Source: an uncultured Chloroflexia bacterium
GTDB taxonomy: Bacteria; Chloroflexota; Limnocylindria; QHBO01
Length of the DNA: 64,000 nucleotides
Assembly: GCA_963840145.1 (NCBI GenBank)
Contig: CAWIXR010000005.1
Span: 94,094 to 158,093 of the forward strand
Direction: 5' to 3'
A program made the translations under genes and the position numbers. Under the pieces are notes generated by a model. The model made no database searches. It worked only from the letters and a program-made list of their open reading frames with translations, and was not told the DNA's origin. Of the stretch, positions 31,138 to 40,368 are shown piece after piece. How positions within the stretch are numbered: the stretch's first letter is position 1; every line of letters begins with the position of its first letter.

Positions 31138-32022
31138 ATGACCGGTCCCGAGCGCTCCTGGTCCTCGCGCTTCCCCGAAGGCTGGTGGGGCTACCACTGG
31201 GAGCCGCCCGTGCCGATGAGCGCGGTCGAGCTGATCGGCACCCCGACGATCGACGCGCGGCTGATGGCCACGTTGTGGGCCGTTGTCGCCCGCCGCCGCA
31301 GCGTGATGCTCAGCTCCGAGGCGCCGCAGGCCGGCAAGACGACCCTGCTGAGCGCGCTCGTCGACTTCCTCCCCGCTGACACGACCGGAATCTTCGTCCG
31401 CGGCTGGTGGGAGGAGTACGACTGGCTCGACGAGATCCCGCCCGGCACCGGCTACCTGCTCATCAACGAGATGAGCGACCACCTGCCGATCTACGTCTGG
31501 GGCCGCGCCGCCCGCGGCGCGCTGATGCTGGCCGGCAAGGGCTGGGGCATCGGCGCCACCATGCACGCCGACTCGCTTCCCGAGGCCCTCGCCACCCTTC
31601 GGACCCACCTTGGCGCGACCGATGCCGACCTCGCCGGCCTCACCGTCTACCTCCAGTACTCGGCCTACCTGACGCCGGCGGGGATGTATCGGCGCATCGA
31701 GGAAGCCTGGCACCTGCGCCTGGATGCCGATGGCGCGCTGGCGCCCGTCCGGCTCGGGGCCATCGAGGGCGATCGGTCCAGTTCGCTGACCGGCGCCCAG
31801 CGTCTGCCCACGCCGCCGATGCTGTCATCGGATGGTGGCCGTGCTGCGCGGCCATTCCTCCACGACCCGGCCGCCTATGCGGTGCTCGCGACCACGCTCG
31901 GCCTGACGCCGGAGGCATTCGAGGCGGAGCTCGCGCATCGGTCTGGCTTCCTCGAGGAGCTGGCCGAGCGCGGTGTCTGCGATCCACCCGCCGTTGCCGC
32001 AGCCGTACGCGACTTCTCCTGA
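31138..32022 (+). CDS. divergent secretion-type (VirB11/CpaF/FlaI superfamily) P-loop ATPase core, stand-alone
   Basis: Walker A APQAGKTT, Asp-box-like GIFVRGWWEE, atypical Walker B YLLINEMSD and His-box GATMHADS, collinear with the CpaF ATPase domain. No N-terminal domain. The ATG is 4 nt after the aldH stop. Confidence 0.5.
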   Translation: MTGPERSWSSRFPEGWWGYHWEPPVPMSAVELIGTPTIDARLMATLWAVVARRRSVMLSSEAPQAGKTTLLSALVDFLPADTTGIFVRGWWEEYDWLDEIPPGTGYLLINEMSDHLPIYVWGRAARGALMLAGKGWGIGATMHADSLPEALATLRTHLGATDADLAGLTVYLQYSAYLTPAGMYRRIEEAWHLRLDADGALAPVRLGAIEGDRSSSLTGAQRLPTPPMLSSDGGRAARPFLHDPAAYAVLATTLGLTPEAFEAELAHRSGFLEELAERGVCDPPAVAAAVRDFS

Positions 32023-32316
32023 CTCGATCCCCGCACCACGGGACATACGCCCAAGGAGGGCAGCGCGGCGGGGAACTCCGGCGTGATCTGACCCGTGCCA
32101 CGGGAATTCGGCGACGGAGGCGGCCGTGCCTGGGAGTATCTCCCGCCCTACGGGAAGGCCATTCCGCGACGTTGACGCGGTACACTCGCCCTGTTCGCGC
32201 TCAGGCGCGTCCCTATCACGAGTGGCCCGAGAGCCCTGGCTCGCTGACGGCCCGGCAACCGACCCGCGTCCTCGCGCGGAAGCGGTGCCCCAGCCAGGAC
32301 CGATAGGAGACAGAGG
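32023..32316 (+). promoter_or_regulatory. 294-nt leader A with three TCCCG-N5-CGGGA palindromic motifs
   Basis: Copies at 32030-32044, 32092-32106 and 32142-32156. It is paralogous to leader B. Confidence 0.45.
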
Positions 32317-33426
32317 ATGACCGCTCCGCCTTCCCCGAACTCGACGACGCCCGAACGCGCCGTCCACCTGGTCGGCAGCACGCCCTTCGACGATCCCGAT
32401 GAGGCACTCGACGTCTTCTACGCGGAGCTGGGTCCGCGGTTGCGCACCGTCCCTGACGGGGAGACCGGCGAGCGCCAGAACTGGATCCAGGGGCTGATCG
32501 ATTCGTTCCGGCACCATCCCAAGCTCGAGGTCGCGCGCCACGGCGACTGGTCCGACTACGACAAGACGCCGACCTTCCGCGTCCGCCGCGGGCAGCGGTT
32601 CACCTCCGCCGACCTCGATCTTGGGTACCTGCGCCACTTCAACGAGTCGTGGCCGCTCTTCGAGCGACGGCGGACCGATGGCCAGCGCTTCCAGGTCGGC
32701 GTCCCTGGGGACTTCGACCTGTCGTCATTCACGTTCGGCCCGTCGCCGAACGGGCTTCGCTATCGAGCAGCCTTCCGGAACGCGACGCTCCGCGACATTC
32801 GCGCGATCCACGACATCGCCGGCGATGAGGTCGTCTACCAGATCGAGGTGCCCTTCGAGCTCATCATCCTGACCTTCCTGCCGCCCACCGTCGGGCGACT
32901 CGCGGCCGGCTACTTCGCCCGCGGGATCGCCGACCTCGCGCGGCGAGCACCGGAGGGAAGCCGCTGGGGCATCCACCTGTGCCTCGGCGACATGAACCAC
33001 CGTGCCTTCGGCCGGCTGCGCGACGTCGGGCCGGTCGTCTGGCTGGCGAACGCGATCGTCGGCCGATGGCCGGATGGCCGTGTCCTCGACTTCGTCCACG
33101 CGCCGCTGGCCGCGGCCGCCGAGCCGCCGCCACTCGAGCCGGAGTTCTACGCACCGCTGCGCGAGCTGCGGCTTCCCCCCGCGACGCGGTTCGTCGGGGG
33201 CTTCGTCCACGAGGGACGGACGCTTGCCGAGCAGCGGGCGCTGATGGCGCGGCTCGACGCGTTGATCGGCCGGCCCGTGGACGTCGCGTGCTCGTGCGGG
33301 CTGGGGCGACGCTCGCGCGACGACGCGCTGCGGACGATCGCGCTGGCACGGGAACTCGTCGATGGGGATCGGGCCGCGGATGAGGTCGCCGAGTTGCCGC
33401 CCGTAACCGTTGCCGCTCGCGAGTGA
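32317..33426 (+). CDS. MetE/UROD-fold protein (cobalamin-independent methionine synthase C-terminal-domain-like)
   Basis: IHLCLGD (His-x-Cys) and C-terminal VDVACSCGLGRRSRDDALRTIALAREL resemble the MetE zinc-site motifs. AGGAGA RBS. Confidence 0.5.
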   Translation: MTAPPSPNSTTPERAVHLVGSTPFDDPDEALDVFYAELGPRLRTVPDGETGERQNWIQGLIDSFRHHPKLEVARHGDWSDYDKTPTFRVRRGQRFTSADLDLGYLRHFNESWPLFERRRTDGQRFQVGVPGDFDLSSFTFGPSPNGLRYRAAFRNATLRDIRAIHDIAGDEVVYQIEVPFELIILTFLPPTVGRLAAGYFARGIADLARRAPEGSRWGIHLCLGDMNHRAFGRLRDVGPVVWLANAIVGRWPDGRVLDFVHAPLAAAAEPPPLEPEFYAPLRELRLPPATRFVGGFVHEGRTLAEQRALMARLDALIGRPVDVACSCGLGRRSRDDALRTIALARELVDGDRAADEVAELPPVTVAARE

Positions 33427-33717
33427 ACCTCGGCTCCCTTGATTCTCGCACCACGGGAGTTAGTCACAGCGAACCATCCGGGATTGCTACCTCGGTCGCG
33501 ATCTGACCCGCAGGACGGGAAGTTCGCGAAGGAGCTGGCGTTCGCTGGGCGGAACTCCCGCACCACGGGATACGCGCCGCCGAATGACGGCCAAGTGGGT
33601 GGTCGGGCAACGAGTGCTACGCTCTGGGGCGTGACCCCGAGCACCGACCGCCCGGCCGATACCACGCTTGGCGAGCTGCGCGCCGTGGGCTACCGGTCGC
33701 GCAGCGTCAAGGAGGAG
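33427..33717 (+). promoter_or_regulatory. 291-nt leader B with three TCCCG-N5-CGGGA palindromic motifs
   Basis: Copies at 33444-33458, 33506-33520 and 33556-33570. It shares blocks such as GATCTGACCCG and GGAACTCC with leader A. Confidence 0.45.
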
Positions 33718-35058
33718 ATGCGAGCCAACCTGCTGGCTCATCTCCGCGAGGGACGGACCTTCCTGCCGGGAATCCTCGGCTACGACGAGACCGTGCTGCC
33801 GCAGCTCGAGAACGCGATCCTGGCCGGACAGGACGTCATCCTGCTCGGCGAGCGCGGGCAGGCGAAGAGCCGGATCGCGCGCAGCCTCATCGGCCTGCTC
33901 GACCCGTGGCTGCCGTATGTCGCCGGCACCGAGCTCCACGACGACCCATTGCACCCGGTCTCGCCGCTCGCGCGCCGGATCCTCGCCGAGGAAGGCGACA
34001 ACGCGACCATCGGCTGGTGGGCGGCGGAGGATCGGTACAGCGAGAAGCTCAGCACCCCGGACATCAGCATCGCCGACCTCATCGGCGAGGTGGACCCGGT
34101 CAAGGTGGCCGAGGGCCGCTACCTGTCCGACGAGCTGACGATCCACTATGGGCTGCTGCCGCGCACGCATCGGGCCATCTTCAGCCTCAACGAGCTGCCG
34201 GACCTGGCCGAGCGCATCCAGGTCGGCCTGCTCAACGTGATGGAGGAGCGCGACGTCCAGGTCCGCGGCTACCGGGTGCGCCTGGAGCTCGACCTGTTCG
34301 TCATCGCCAGCGCGAACCCGGAGGACTACACGAGCCGCGGGCGGATCATCACGCCGCTGAAGGACCGATTCGGCGCGCAGATCCGGACGCACTACCCGGA
34401 GGAGAGCGACACCGAGATGGCGATCGTCGACTCGGAGGCCACCATCTTCGAGACCGATGACGACCGATCCATCCCGGTCCAGGTGCCCGGCTTCATGAAG
34501 GAGGTCATCGCGGAGCTGTCGCAGCTGGCGCGGCGATCCTCGGAGGTCAGCCAGCGCTCCGGCGTGAGCGTGCGGGTCACGATCTCGAACCACGAGACGC
34601 TTGCCGCGGCCGCACTGAAGCGTGCCGTGCGCCTCGGCGAGCCGTCGGCGGCGCCGCGGATCAGCGACCTGCCGGCGATCGTGGCCTCGACCGCGGGCAA
34701 GATCGAGCTCGAGACCCTCGGCGACGAGACGCGCGAGGATCGCGTCGTCGAGAAGCTCGTGGCCCGCGCGGTCGTCAACGTCTTCAACCGCCACTTCGCG
34801 CTCAGCGAGATGGCGCCGCTTATCGAGCGCTTCGAAGAGGAGGGCCTGCAGGCCGAGGTCGGCGAGTTCGTCCCGTCGACCGCCCACGGCTCGCTGGCCG
34901 ACGCCGTGCCCGAGCTGCGGTCGGCCGTCGCGCGGCTGGACGCCGGGGAGTCGCCGGCGGGCGTGGCCTCGGCGATCGAGTTCGTCCTCGAGGGTCTTCA
35001 CCTCAACCGGCGGTTGAACAAGGAGCGCCGCGGCGGCGGGATCCGCTACGCCCGCTGA
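33718..35058 (+). CDS. ChlI/BchI-like AAA+ protein with degenerate Walker A and Walker B motifs
   Basis: Collinear with Mg-chelatase ChlI (FLPGILGYDE..., LLPRTHRAIFSLNELPDL..., SANPEDYTSRGRIITPLKDRFG). Walker A reads GERGQAKS where ChlI has GDRGTGKS. Walker B reads FSLNE where ChlI has YIDE. AAGGAGG RBS 4 nt before the ATG. Confidence 0.6.
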   Translation: MRANLLAHLREGRTFLPGILGYDETVLPQLENAILAGQDVILLGERGQAKSRIARSLIGLLDPWLPYVAGTELHDDPLHPVSPLARRILAEEGDNATIGWWAAEDRYSEKLSTPDISIADLIGEVDPVKVAEGRYLSDELTIHYGLLPRTHRAIFSLNELPDLAERIQVGLLNVMEERDVQVRGYRVRLELDLFVIASANPEDYTSRGRIITPLKDRFGAQIRTHYPEESDTEMAIVDSEATIFETDDDRSIPVQVPGFMKEVIAELSQLARRSSEVSQRSGVSVRVTISNHETLAAAALKRAVRLGEPSAAPRISDLPAIVASTAGKIELETLGDETREDRVVEKLVARAVVNVFNRHFALSEMAPLIERFEEEGLQAEVGEFVPSTAHGSLADAVPELRSAVARLDAGESPAGVASAIEFVLEGLHLNRRLNKERRGGGIRYAR

Positions 35059-35200: not shown

Positions 35201-35530
35201 TTGCTCGCCGGCACCGCCTACCTCGTCTCACCGATCGACCTGGTGCCCGGCTTCATCCCGGTCGTCGGCCAGCTCGACGACGCCCTGGTCGTGCTCCTGG
35301 CCATCCGTCACGCCTTGACCGGCCTGCCGCCGGCGGACCGCGAGGCCGCGCTCACCCGGGCCGGCCTGGATGCGCGGGCGCTCGACGACGACCTGCGAAC
35401 GATCGCGGCGACCTACGCCTGGCTGGGCCGGAAGGGGGCGCGGCTCACCTGGCGCACTGCCCGCACGCTCGCCCGTGCGGGGTCGCGGCTCGGTCATCGT
35501 CTGGCTGCTCGGGCGCGACGCGAGGGCTGA
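35201..35530 (+). CDS. DUF1232 (YkvA-like) domain protein
   Basis: SPIDLVPGFIPVVGQLDD is the family motif. The track start is a TTG. The ORF stays open and protein-like for ~45 codons further upstream with no canonical start. Confidence 0.5.
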   Translation: MLAGTAYLVSPIDLVPGFIPVVGQLDDALVVLLAIRHALTGLPPADREAALTRAGLDARALDDDLRTIAATYAWLGRKGARLTWRTARTLARAGSRLGHRLAARARREG

Positions 35531-35590: not shown

Positions 35591-38305
35591 GTGCCTGGCG
35601 GGGCGGAAGTCTCCTCGATGACCCTGAGCGATGAGCGTGCCGCGCGATTTGCCGCCGCTGGCGCCTATCGGCGCCTCTTCCTCGTGGCCGGCGTGGGCAT
35701 CGTCGCCCTCGTCGCGGGCGTCCTGGCGAGCGGTGGCGCACCCTGGCCGCAGCTCGTCCGCCTCGCCGCGGCTGCAATCGGCTTCGCGTTAGCGTTCCGC
35801 GGCTGGCACGCCGCGGTCGGCCGCCGCCGTCGCGTCCGCGGGTGGATCACGTTCGCGATCGGCGTCTGGCTCGTCTCCGAGACCGGCCGCCTGGTCGCGG
35901 CCTGGACCGGCGAGCCGGCCATCCTCGCCGAGCTGAGCGTCGTCGCCCTCGCTGTCGCGGCGGTCGGCACCTACATCGCCATCGTCCGCGGTCGGATGCG
36001 GCCGGCCGAGGAGGCGGCCCTCTACCTCGACCAGGCGGCCCTCTTCTTCGGGCTGATGGCCGCGGTGGTGCTCATCGGTTCGAGCGTGCTGTACGACGGC
36101 CACAGCGTGGCGGTGCTGGCGCACGGGGCCTTTTTCCTCGGCGTGCTGGCGGCGACGCTGTTGCTCGATCTCGCCACCCACACGCCGCTCCGCTTCGTGG
36201 GCCCATGGGAGATCCTCGTGGGGCTGGCGTTGGTCGCGGGCGGCTACATCGGGCTGCTGACCCGGACGGGACCGGAGACGGTGACGACGGCGCTGCAGCT
36301 GAGCGTCGCCTTCGGCGTGATTCTGGCCGGACACGGGGGCGGCCACTGGACCGATCTCGAGGCGCGATCGCCGCGATACCTCAGGGCCGCCGACACGTTG
36401 CGGAGGATCCTGCCGATCGGCAGCGCGATTCTGACCGTCGCGATCGGCGTCGTGCTGATCTGGCAGCCGGAGATGATCGCCGGACCCGCGCGCATCGGCG
36501 TGGCGGTCGCGGCCGGCACCGCCGCGCTCGCCGTGCTCGCCCGCCAGACGCTGCTGCTTTTGGATCGCGACAGGGTCATCGGCAGCGAACGCCGCCTCAG
36601 CGACGAGCTGACGGTCGCCGAGGCGCAGTACCGATCCGTCGTCGAGCGCGTGCCCGGCGTCGTCTACGTCGCCGAGGCCGGACAGCACGGTCGCTGGCAT
36701 TTCGTCAGCCCGAAGATCAAGCAACTGCTCGGCTACAGCGCCGAGGAGTGGATGGGCGATCCGACGCTCTGGATGACCCGCATGCATCCGGCCGATCGCG
36801 CCCGGATGATCCAGGCCGAGAACGACGACCTCGAGCGCGCCGACAGCCAGGGGCGCTGGGAATACCGATTGATCGCGCGCGACGGTCGCGTCGTGTGGGT
36901 CATCGACGACGAGGCGGTCATCAGCCGCGACGTCGACGGCCGGCCGATCATGGTGCAGGGCATCCTCGTCGACATCAGCGACCGCAAGGACCTGGAGGAA
37001 CAGCTTCGCCACCAGGCCCTGCACGACCCGCTCACCGGCCTGCCGAATCGGGTGCTCTTCGTGGATCGCCTCTCGCATGCCCTGGTGCGCCGCGCGCGGG
37101 CGACGAACGGTCTCGCGGTGCTGTTCGTCGACCTCGACGACTTCAAGGACGTCAACGACAGCCTCGGCCACGCGGTCGGCGACCGCCTCCTGCGCCTTGT
37201 CGCGGCGCGGCTGCGCGGCGTCCTGCGCGCCGAGGACAGCGCCGGGCGCCTGGGGGGCGACGAGTTCGCCTTCCTGCTCGAGGACGCCACCCCGGCTCGC
37301 GCCGAGCGGGTGGCCGAGCGCATCCTCGCCGCCCTTGGTGCGCCGTTCGAGCTGGGCGAGGGCAATGCGACCCTGTCGGCCAGCATCGGCATCGCGGTCC
37401 GCTCGGGACCGATCGACGAGACCGATGCCACCGCCGCGGCCGACGAGCTGCTGCGCGACGCCGACACCGCGATGTACGCCGCCAAGGCGATGGGCAAGGG
37501 CCGCGTCCGCCTCTTCGACCGCGGCATGTCCGAGCCGGCGGCCCGCCGCCGTGAGCTCGGCGCGGCCCTGGCCCGGGCCTTGGACGATGACGATCAGCTG
37601 TTCCTCGAGTACCAGCCGATCGTCGACCTGCGCAGCCGCTCGTGGTTCGGCCTCGAGGCACTCGTGCGCTGGGATCACCCGCAGCTCGGCCGCCTGATGC
37701 CCGCCGAATTCATTCCGCTGGCAGAGGAGAACCGCCTGATCAGCCGCCTCGGCGACTGGGTCCTGCGCCGCGCCTGCAGCGACCTCGCCGGCGGGAACAC
37801 GCTGGTCTCGGTCAACGTGTCCGCCCACCAGCTCGGCGGCGATCTCTCCGGCGTCGTCGCGGCCGTCCTGGCCGAGACCGGGCTGAAGCCCTCGCGCCTG
37901 ATGCTCGAGCTGACCGAGAGCACGATCGCCTCGGCCGGCGCCGGGGCCGAGGGCGAGCTCCAGGCGATCCAGGGCCTCGGCGTACGGATCGCGCTCGACG
38001 ACTTTGGATCGGGCTACTCCTCGCTCGAATACCTCGGCCGCATCCCGATCGACATCCTGAAGATCGACCGCTCGCTGGTCGAGCAGGTGCACGTCGAGCC
38101 GCAGCGCCAGGAGGTGCTGCGGGCCATCGGCCACATCGCCGAGAAGCTCGGCCTGCGCACGATCGTCGAGGGCGTCGAGCACGAGGCCCAGCGGGAGGCG
38201 CTTCTCGATCTCGGCTTCCACCATGCGCAGGGATTCCTCTTCGCCCACCCGCTGCCGCTCACCGAGGCCCTCGCCCCTCCCTCCGAGCTGTCGCGAGCTT
38301 CGTAG
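35591..38305 (+). CDS. membrane sensor protein with PAS, GGDEF and EAL domains (c-di-GMP turnover)
   Basis: ~9 N-terminal TM helices, a PAS region, GGDEF (RLGGDEFAF) and EAL (EALVRW, ELTES, DDFGSGYSS) motifs. Confidence 0.85.
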   Translation: MPGGAEVSSMTLSDERAARFAAAGAYRRLFLVAGVGIVALVAGVLASGGAPWPQLVRLAAAAIGFALAFRGWHAAVGRRRRVRGWITFAIGVWLVSETGRLVAAWTGEPAILAELSVVALAVAAVGTYIAIVRGRMRPAEEAALYLDQAALFFGLMAAVVLIGSSVLYDGHSVAVLAHGAFFLGVLAATLLLDLATHTPLRFVGPWEILVGLALVAGGYIGLLTRTGPETVTTALQLSVAFGVILAGHGGGHWTDLEARSPRYLRAADTLRRILPIGSAILTVAIGVVLIWQPEMIAGPARIGVAVAAGTAALAVLARQTLLLLDRDRVIGSERRLSDELTVAEAQYRSVVERVPGVVYVAEAGQHGRWHFVSPKIKQLLGYSAEEWMGDPTLWMTRMHPADRARMIQAENDDLERADSQGRWEYRLIARDGRVVWVIDDEAVISRDVDGRPIMVQGILVDISDRKDLEEQLRHQALHDPLTGLPNRVLFVDRLSHALVRRARATNGLAVLFVDLDDFKDVNDSLGHAVGDRLLRLVAARLRGVLRAEDSAGRLGGDEFAFLLEDATPARAERVAERILAALGAPFELGEGNATLSASIGIAVRSGPIDETDATAAADELLRDADTAMYAAKAMGKGRVRLFDRGMSEPAARRRELGAALARALDDDDQLFLEYQPIVDLRSRSWFGLEALVRWDHPQLGRLMPAEFIPLAEENRLISRLGDWVLRRACSDLAGGNTLVSVNVSAHQLGGDLSGVVAAVLAETGLKPSRLMLELTESTIASAGAGAEGELQAIQGLGVRIALDDFGSGYSSLEYLGRIPIDILKIDRSLVEQVHVEPQRQEVLRAIGHIAEKLGLRTIVEGVEHEAQREALLDLGFHHAQGFLFAHPLPLTEALAPPSELSRAS

Positions 38306-39516: not shown

Positions 39517-40368
39517 CTACTCGCGCTCGCCATCAAGAAGCCGATCGACGGCGCGCTGGTACTGCTCGTCAGTCAGCGCGCCGTCTTCGTGCAGCTCCTT
39601 CAGGCGCCGGATCTCCTTCGTCATCGCGCGGCTGGATCGATCCGGCCGCGGCGGCCCCGGAGGCGCATGCGGGCTGCCGAGCGGGAAGCCCTCGCCGAAG
39701 GTCTGCTCCAACGTGCCGAGGACGCGCGACTCGATCAGCTCGCGCGTGCGCCGCGCGAACTCGGACCGCCCGTCCTCCGACGCTGGCTCGTCCGGCATCG
39801 GCTCCGGATCGCCGGCCGATGGGCTCGGCGACGCCGAGACGCCGTCGATGACGAGCTCGAAGATCGGTTCCGGCCGGTCGATGTCCTTCAGCTGGCGATC
39901 GCCCAGTGACCGAAGCTCGCAGCCCTCGCCGAGGTCGCCGGCCACGATCGAGCGGGTCGTGTCCGACAGCAGCACCTGGCCGCCAGCTCCGGTCGCGGCG
40001 ATTCGCGAGGCGCGCACGACGTCGAGGCCGGTGTAGCCCTCGTCGCCGACCGCCGGCTCGCCGGTGTGCAGGCCGAGGCGGATGCGGACCTCGACACCAC
40101 CGGGCCACGATCCCTTGGCGTGGGCGCGCGTCACCTCGACTGCGGCAGCCACGGCCTGGCGGGCGCGGACGAAGGAGTAGAAGAAGGCATCGCCCTGGGT
40201 GTCGATCTCCTGGCCTTCGTGCGCGGCGAAGATGTCGCGCACGAGCCGCCGATGCACGGCAAGCAGTTGCCCGTATTCGGTGTCGCCGAGCTGCTTGAGC
40301 AGCGCCGTGCTGCCGGCGATGTCACTGAATACGAAGGTGACCGTTCCCGAGGGTAGCGTCACGCCCAT
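39517..40368 (-). CDS. class III adenylate/guanylate cyclase with C-terminal SHOCT motif
   Basis: Cyclase homology domain (FSDIAGST...GDAFF...GLHTGE) and C-terminal EIRRLKELHEDGALTDEQYQRAV. Confidence 0.8.
   Translation of the reverse strand: MGVTLPSGTVTFVFSDIAGSTALLKQLGDTEYGQLLAVHRRLVRDIFAAHEGQEIDTQGDAFFYSFVRARQAVAAAVEVTRAHAKGSWPGGVEVRIRLGLHTGEPAVGDEGYTGLDVVRASRIAATGAGGQVLLSDTTRSIVAGDLGEGCELRSLGDRQLKDIDRPEPIFELVIDGVSASPSPSAGDPEPMPDEPASEDGRSEFARRTRELIESRVLGTLEQTFGEGFPLGSPHAPPGPPRPDRSSRAMTKEIRRLKELHEDGALTDEQYQRAVDRLLDGERE

Follow-up and report, generated by a model that had tools for sequence, protein, structure and literature searches.

Can an AAA+ protein that carries an asparagine in place of the Walker B aspartate still work as an ATPase? 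This question is raised by a ChlI-like gene in a stretch of 64,000 nucleotides from an uncultured Chloroflexia bacterium (called the window in the following, by which the full 64-kb stretch is meant). A first reading made from the sequence alone had taken its product for a pseudo-ATPase kept for a scaffolding or regulatory role. Judged from its sequence, the protein appears to belong to a very large, strongly conserved and uncharacterised chelatase-type subfamily of the helix-2/pre-sensor-1 insert clade, of which the Walker B asparagine is a signature and not an error. It is rather probable that the protein is a working ATPase, perhaps a slow or partner-gated one.

The longest open reading frame (ORF) in the frame concerned covers positions 33439-35058 of the forward strand, with a TGA stop at 35058. 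As the GC content at the third codon position (GC3) of this frame is 0.91, it is considered as coding, and the long antisense ORF opposite to it is the usual shadow of high-GC DNA. The sequence-only reading had let the gene begin at 33718, an internal Met (MRANLL) that is also picked by some gene callers. Upstream of this Met lies the segment TLGELRxxGYRxRSVKEE (residues 10-29), which is conserved across phyla; the N-terminal 30 residues as a whole are conserved, and the listed homologues (57-95% identical) are mostly 464-480 amino acids (aa) long. Because of this conserved N-terminus and the length of the orthologues, the GTG at 33631 is most likely the true start. All residue numbers follow the resulting protein:

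33631..35058, + strand: ChlI-like AAA+ gene, 475 aa, GTG start and TGA stop (ORF, GC3 0.91, homologue lengths, conserved N-terminus)

A search of the PDB with the single AAA+ sequence (phmmer) led to ChlI (8osf, E 2.6e-6), and a profile of 20 diverse family members matched ChlI 8osf (1.6e-14), BchI (1g8p, 1.2e-11) and archaeal LonB (~1e-10). Pairwise and profile alignments to ChlI and BchI are collinear from the P-loop to past the arginine finger and pair, family versus ChlI, GERGQAKS with GDRGTGKS, RGIFxxNEL with RGILYVDEV, ANPEDY with GNPEE and KDRFG with LLDRFG. As these alignments place GERGQAKS on GDRGTGKS and the hhhhNE segment on ILYVDEV, the motif assignment is correct, far above chance, with Asn187 falling on the Walker B Asp of ChlI. 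The collinearity with Mg-chelatase subunit I, the readings GERGQAKS and IFSLNELPD and the replacement of the Walker B Asp by Asn, all put forward in the sequence-only reading, are thus borne out; the motifs had not been misassigned. The following features could be mapped onto the gene:

33847..33870, + strand: Walker A/P-loop G73-E-R-G-Q-A-K79-S80, on ChlI GDRGTGKS; family pattern G[EL]RGQ[AG]K[ST]
33898..34035, + strand: insert after helix alpha2, residues 90-135, corresponding to ChlI insertion i1 (aligned to ChlI residues ~67-115)
34045..34119, + strand: KLxTPDxxxxDLIGxxDPxKxAxGR, residues 139-163, corresponding to the ChlI helix-2 insert region; invariant or near-invariant columns, aligning to ChlI ATEDRVCGTIDIEKAL
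34177..34206, + strand: Walker B I-F-S-L-N187-E188-L-P-D191-L with Asn for the canonical Asp (alignment and conservation; Asn187 codon AAC at 34189-34191)
34312..34329, + strand: sensor 1, A-N229-P-E-D-Y, aligning to ChlI GNPEE
34363..34368, + strand: Arg finger D245-R246, equivalent of ChlI LLDRFG (R210)
34561..34575, + strand: putative sensor 2, G-V-S-V-R315, by its position in the helical lid domain (alignment to ChlI R291 not significant)
34843..35055, + strand: C-terminal domain of three helices and a beta-hairpin, ending in the conserved EFxLEGLHLxxxLNK (AlphaFold pLDDT >90)

Insertion i1 is described as specific to ChlI-like proteins, and R210 is identified as the Arg finger of ChlI (PMC10653834).

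The AlphaFold model of the protein reached a predicted local distance difference test (pLDDT) of 74 and a predicted template modelling score (pTM) of 0.79. In this model, a strand at residues 181-187 ends at Asn187 and a strand-loop-helix unit is found at residues 69-89, as expected for a Walker B motif and a P-loop, respectively. The top whole-chain structural match was ChlI (8osh_B; probability 1.0, target-normalised template modelling score (TM-score) 0.57, identity ~20%), followed by MCM, NorQ and Lon, with all fold matches coming from Lon or from members of the helix-2/pre-sensor-1 insert clade (clade 7). Alignment to ChlI extends through its insert regions, and it is exactly in the segments of the helix-2 and pre-sensor-1 inserts that pLDDT is below 50. 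More generally, values below 50 were obtained in the most conserved core (helix-2 insert region, the part after Walker B, sensor 1 to Arg finger) and values above 90 in the less conserved C-terminus. The core segments of low pLDDT may fold only in an oligomer or with nucleotide bound. For the separately modelled C-terminal domain the best Foldseek matches were all winged-helix proteins, none of them being significant (E 0.4-3), so that this domain is possibly winged-helix-like.

A HMMER search of 1.84 billion cluster representatives yielded 3,677 matches at E ≤1e-3, with 702 (50%-identity clusters) at E <1e-30. Residues were counted in the best 150 representatives of the 50%-identity clusters, the denominators being those scored at the respective position. 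At position 187, Asn is present in 135 of 140 representatives, Asp in two and Gln in two. The adjacent Glu188 (139/142) and Asp191 (139/143) are kept as well, and so are the sensor-1 Asn229 (130/137), the Arg finger Arg246 (135/143) and the putative sensor-2 Arg315 (89/96). In the P-loop, Lys79 occurs in 82 of 94 and Ser or Thr80 in 86 of 93 representatives, and position 78 holds Ala in 72 and the canonical Gly in 15 of the 93 scored. Some representatives are visibly frameshifted metagenome ORFs, which probably explain much of the residual deviation. Among the listed homologues, NELPDL was found in 240 of 240; G-E-R-G-Q-[AG]-K-[ST] was read with Ala in 239 and with Gly in one, and one homologue had no P-loop match. 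The signature of the family can hence be written as G[EL]RGQ[AG]K[ST] for the P-loop and hhhhNELPDL for Walker B. Identity between phyla amounts to 52-65%, a very high value among AAA+ families. As the same motif occurs in all listed homologues and nearly all representatives, Asn187 is not a sequencing variant; orthologues with canonical motifs, for which the sequence-only reading had allowed, are not the rule. The gene in the window is an ordinary, intact member of this family and is under purifying selection, with a ratio of non-synonymous to synonymous substitution rates (dN/dS) of 0.13-0.19 in comparison to its nearest relatives, which likewise have no adjacent gene for a vWA (von Willebrand factor A) domain protein.

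Such a vWA gene is the one conserved neighbour of the family. The neighbourhoods of the best 80 loci, out of at least 600 matching stretches with one genome per species, span Chloroflexota, Actinomycetota (mainly Acidimicrobiia), Dormiibacterota, Rokubacteria, Binatia, Myxococcota, delta- and gamma-proteobacteria and a spirochaete. Among the carriers available in culture are Thermogemmatispora and Tepidiforma flava, with the pair or the orphan gene. In 58 of these 80 loci the AAA+ gene is followed, without change of strand and mostly at a distance of under 100 nt, by a gene for a vWA protein of 530-700 aa. This partner protein combines a long N-terminal coiled coil with a C-terminal vWA domain (VWA_2), in which the residues of the MIDAS (metal ion-dependent adhesion site), DxSxS, T and D, are each at least 90% conserved, and which weakly resembles the putative cobaltochelatase model TIGR02442. 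As the three partner proteins scanned against Pfam were without an AAA+ domain, the AAA+ protein would be the only nucleoside triphosphatase (NTPase) of the module. When 3,833 ORFs taken from 81 loci were clustered, the only synteny besides the vWA gene was that of lineage-specific housekeeping genes (succinate dehydrogenase, rpsA/IHF/cmk, WhiB), and no ChlH or CobN came up. Since a vWA gene with an intact MIDAS follows in most of the 80 loci, the family is likely to supply the motor of an AAA+/vWA pair that is uncharacterised. The rare Asp-bearing relative (P0172/P0409) does not inform on an interchange of Asp and Asn within the pair, because it has no adjacent vWA gene. Immediately upstream of P0409 (DELPDL; locus L161 2328-7395), a PAS/GAF histidine kinase and a genuine sigma-54 enhancer-binding protein with receiver, Sigma54_activat and HTH_8 domains are encoded.

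The succession of an AAA+ gene and a vWA gene whose MIDAS is intact, seen in 58 of the 80 loci though not in the window, parallels that of the MoxR pairs RavA-ViaA, CbbQ-CbbO, NorQ-NorD and CoxD-CoxE. These belong to the helix-2-insert clade, in which the family also appears to fall, an A-K-[ST] P-loop is common to RavA and the family, and NorQ is among the fold matches. Nevertheless, the protein is nearer to ChlI, its scores for Pfam AAA_3 (MoxR, PF07726; 22.6 bits) and bpMoxR (16.4 bits) are both below the cut-off of 27 bits, and its 475 aa compare with ~270-330 aa for most MoxR proteins (RavA with ~500 aa excepted). The generic Pfam AAA_5 was matched with 28.4 bits (cut-off 22). The Walker B motif of RavA reads VFLDEI, and we know of no Walker B Asn in other MoxR proteins.

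Beyond the homology, the mapped motifs, the conservation across the family, the purifying selection and the synteny with the vWA gene, which the data demonstrate, we infer ATP binding, hydrolysis, ring formation and a remodelling role. Mg-ATP would be bound via Lys79 and Ser80, and the subunits would form a ring, with Arg246 and Arg315 touching the nucleotide at the subunit interface. ATP would still be hydrolysed through Glu188 and the sensor-1 Asn229, with the uncharged Asn187 taking over from the usual Asp in holding the water bound to Mg; turnover would probably be slow or dependent on partner or substrate. In AAA+/vWA systems the vWA domain catches a client peptide or acidic residue and the ATPase passes on a conformational change (PMC7159879; PMC5385338). 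By analogy to ChlI/ChlD, CbbQ/CbbO, NorQ/NorD and RavA/ViaA, the vWA domain would seize an acidic residue of a target, which the AAA+ ring would then remodel.

What speaks for a working ATPase is that a single catalytic position is altered. The multi-residue loss expected of a pseudo-ATPase was not found: Lys79/Ser80, Glu188, Asn229, Arg246 and Arg315 are all present and 87-98% conserved, the sole deviation being Asn187 at the first acidic position of Walker B, and this pattern is the opposite of a decayed pseudo-ATPase. The claim of the sequence-only reading that both ATPase motifs are degenerate holds for the Asp-to-Asn change in Walker B and not for the P-loop, which retains Gly73, Gly76, Lys79 and Ser80 and in part of the family even Gly78. 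GPPGIAKS is the P-loop of RavA from E. coli, an ATPase that has been characterised and whose structure was solved with Mg-ADP (PMC6987120), so that the A-K-S ending is not a defect. For the Asn itself, green-type Rubisco activase offers a natural precedent, as CCLFINDLDA of the tobacco protein (3t15) aligns by BLASTP to CIIFIDEIDA of FtsH (LFINDLD on FIDEID) and as its ATPase is constitutively active (PMC5385338). This enzyme is, however, related at the superfamily level only; it belongs to the classical AAA clade and has no vWA partner.

Among the alternatives, a pseudo-ATPase survives best. The protein would then bind ATP or nothing at all, would not hydrolyse it, and would act, locked by its nucleotide, as scaffold or switch of the vWA partner or of some other protein. 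We regard this as unlikely, though it is the alternative to be taken most seriously: the Walker B Asp is replaced in essentially all members, and Asn, although only a single transition away from Asp, almost never reverts, which suggests that the uncharged residue itself is selected. Several further points weigh against an active enzyme. Engineered Walker B Asp-to-Asn or Asp-to-Ala mutants of AAA+ proteins are generally impaired in hydrolysis, with binding and oligomerisation being intact (PMC6344862). The precedent of Rubisco activase is inexact, as there the Asn is followed by Asp and not by Glu. The Arg finger and the sensor residues would also be kept if only ATP-dependent oligomerisation were needed. 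The model has pLDDT values below 50 all around the nucleotide pocket (residues 140-177, 188-218 and 229-253), so that the geometry of the pocket cannot be judged from it. Finally, a tblastn search with five partner sequences did not find the vWA partner anywhere in the 64-kb window, and its presence elsewhere in the source genome is deduced from related metagenome contigs only.

On the other side, Glu188, Asn229 and Arg246 serve hydrolysis more than binding and are, like Arg315, 93-98% conserved. The low dN/dS and the activity of Rubisco activase with Asn at the same position also argue against a loss of hydrolysis, and the conserved two-gene module contains no other NTPase that could act as energy source. 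The AAA+ domain of ChlD and AAA5/6 of dynein are degenerate AAA+ modules. Non-canonical Walker motifs are likewise a feature of, for example, the N-terminal FtsH-type domain of FtsH ternary systems (PMC7159879); the family studied here differs from such modules in that one position is changed and all other catalytic residues are near-invariant. A working ATPase is therefore favoured here over the pseudo-ATPase of the sequence-only reading.

It is very improbable that the protein acts in tetrapyrrole metalation as a genuine I/S subunit of a Mg- or Co-chelatase. Relatives carry the name 'magnesium chelatase subunit I' at JGI, ChlI and BchI (8osf, 6l8d, 1g8p) are the nearest solved relatives, being the best match in sequence and fold with collinear P-loop, i1, helix-2 insert, Walker B, sensor 1 (xNPEx) and DRxG, and ChlI and the family alike work with a vWA/MIDAS protein. 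In addition, there are weak matches to TIGR02442 for the AAA+ protein as well as for the partner with the vWA domain. The scores are, however, far below the cut-offs (TIGR02030 BchI-ChlI: 23.2 versus 466.95 bits; TIGR02442 putative cobaltochelatase: 32 versus 779 bits), and identity to ChlI is only ~20%. The protein also differs from ChlI in its Walker B Asn, in ~40 extra N-terminal residues and in a C-terminal extension of ~90 residues past the lid, and the partner of the family has a coiled coil where ChlD has an AAA+ domain. Among the conserved genes of the 80 neighbourhoods there is none of ChlH or CobN size and none of the ChlD type, in which AAA+ is fused to vWA. The family also extends to many lineages that are not known to make chlorophyll, such as Acidimicrobiia, Binatia, Dormiibacterota and Dehalococcoidia.

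A sigma-54-dependent transcriptional activator is hardly credible either. This idea could draw on the NCBI name 'sigma 54-interacting transcriptional regulator', on a match to Pfam Sigma54_activat (PF00158) of 24.0 bits over a cut-off of 20.2 and on the possible winged-helix-like C-terminal domain. Yet, no more than 59 of the 168 positions of the profile (85-143) are matched, around Walker B and sensor 1. The GAFTGA loop is absent (no match to G[AS]F[TS]G[AG]), Pfam revealed no HTH_8, receiver, GAF or PAS domain in the protein, and its closest relatives are AAA+ proteins of the chelatase type and not of the NtrC type. The sigma-54 name is thus an artefact of a domain hit, and the chelatase name used at JGI is an over-call. 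A sequencing error or decaying pseudogene, for which nothing speaks except the atypical motif, is practically ruled out by the presence of this motif in 240/240 homologues across independent assemblies, the intact ORF and the dN/dS of 0.13-0.19.

With regard to the missing partner, the same tblastn search revealed no vWA partner within 8 kb on either side in 12 loci without an adjacent vWA gene, including the nearest Limnocylindria loci L001, L002, L003 and L005. In a 79%-identical relative (L004) and in many soil metagenome contigs the order is FlaI-like P-loop gene, AAA+ gene, (DUF1232 gene) and vWA gene. Other contigs, equal in GC content (0.69-0.71), carry a vWA gene 77-80% identical to that of L004 in other surroundings, the 6 kb upstream being free of AAA+ genes. 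The AAA+ protein of the window is 78-79% identical to those of L004-type loci. As the AAA+ and the solitary vWA proteins have diverged similarly from L004-type loci, the simplest reading is that the pair was split in the lineage of the window and that the vWA protein probably acts in trans. The two genes known from the L004-type order are still found in the window:

31138..32022, + strand: distant FlaI/GspE/VirB11-like P-loop protein, ~290 aa (NF058587 E 1.9e-6; PDB 2oap E 1.4e-3; no Pfam match)
35201..35530, + strand: small DUF1232 protein, downstream of the AAA+ gene (Pfam PF06803, E 3.4e-12)

The closest relatives that keep the pair (L004, L082, L083, L091) have the order AAA+, DUF1232, vWA. 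As a neighbour upstream of the AAA+ gene, the FlaI-like gene is specific to certain lineages, namely Limnocylindria and part of the other Chloroflexota; the two genes adjoin in L001, L002, L004, L005, L011, L016, L017 and L018 and in numerous loci from metagenomes. Scans with PADLOC for defence systems gave no meaningful matches, leaving a defence role unsupported, and Rfam, promoter and terminator scans near the AAA+ gene showed no element attached to it.

In the window and in a close relative (L166), a riboswitch-like element and a gene of 369 aa are inserted between the FlaI-like and the AAA+ gene:

32210-32309, + strand: S-adenosylmethionine-I (SAM-I) riboswitch-like element (RF00162, full-length, 39.4 bits versus a gathering threshold of 44.4, E 1.6e-6)
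32317-33426, + strand: ORF of 369 aa, 8 nt past the riboswitch-like element and upstream of the AAA+ gene

The element recurs in L166 (2892-2992; 40.6 bits). In the locus of a 57%-identical homologue (L162 1771-1861) the riboswitch, scoring 45.6 bits and thereby above the gathering threshold, heads a two-gene unit, and in two other loci the element was not found. The 369-aa protein had no match in Pfam, NCBIfam or PDB; 873 proteins, all 'hypothetical', make up its family at E ≤1e-3, and where a source is named it is mostly from Actinomycetota. The ORF may represent an uncharacterised gene related to methionine or SAM. In a further locus (L163 4043-6068, - strand) a homologue of the 369-aa protein adjoins an unrelated AAA/VWA_CoxE pair on the opposite strand, which is probably a coincidence.

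Downstream of the DUF1232 gene, two genes form a second-messenger signalling cluster beside the AAA+ gene:

35591-38305, + strand: protein with a long, seemingly membrane-spanning N-terminal region followed by PAS, GGDEF and EAL domains
39517-40368, - strand: nucleotide cyclase with a SHOCT domain

The GGDEF-EAL neighbour also occurs in L002 and L166.

Going beyond what is set out above, and quite unlikely to be right in this form, the ring might function as a switch loaded with ATP, with hydrolysis turned off by default, which fires only once the MIDAS-bearing vWA partner or a captured substrate completes the metal site. The Asn would then define a mechanistically distinct branch of chelatase-type proteins, a housekeeping machine for remodelling or metal insertion in many phyla, which in Limnocylindria would be unlinked from its vWA partner and placed beside a FlaI-like P-loop protein.

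No paper on the family was found in the literature on COG4867/COG1239, ChlI-like proteins and non-canonical Walker B motifs, and at present its members are mislabelled as 'magnesium chelatase subunit I' or 'sigma-54-interacting regulator'. AAA+/vWA pairs such as Mg-/Co-chelatase, CbbQO, NorQD and RavA-ViaA are employed again and again where remodelling or metal insertion is driven by ATP. With at least 600 stretches (one genome per species) and 702 clusters, the family is among the largest of such pairs without a known client. A strictly conserved Asn, where textbooks hold Asp to be obligatory, poses a testable question on how Mg-ATP is handled in AAA+ sites, and it also cautions that pseudo-enzymes should not be called from one motif.

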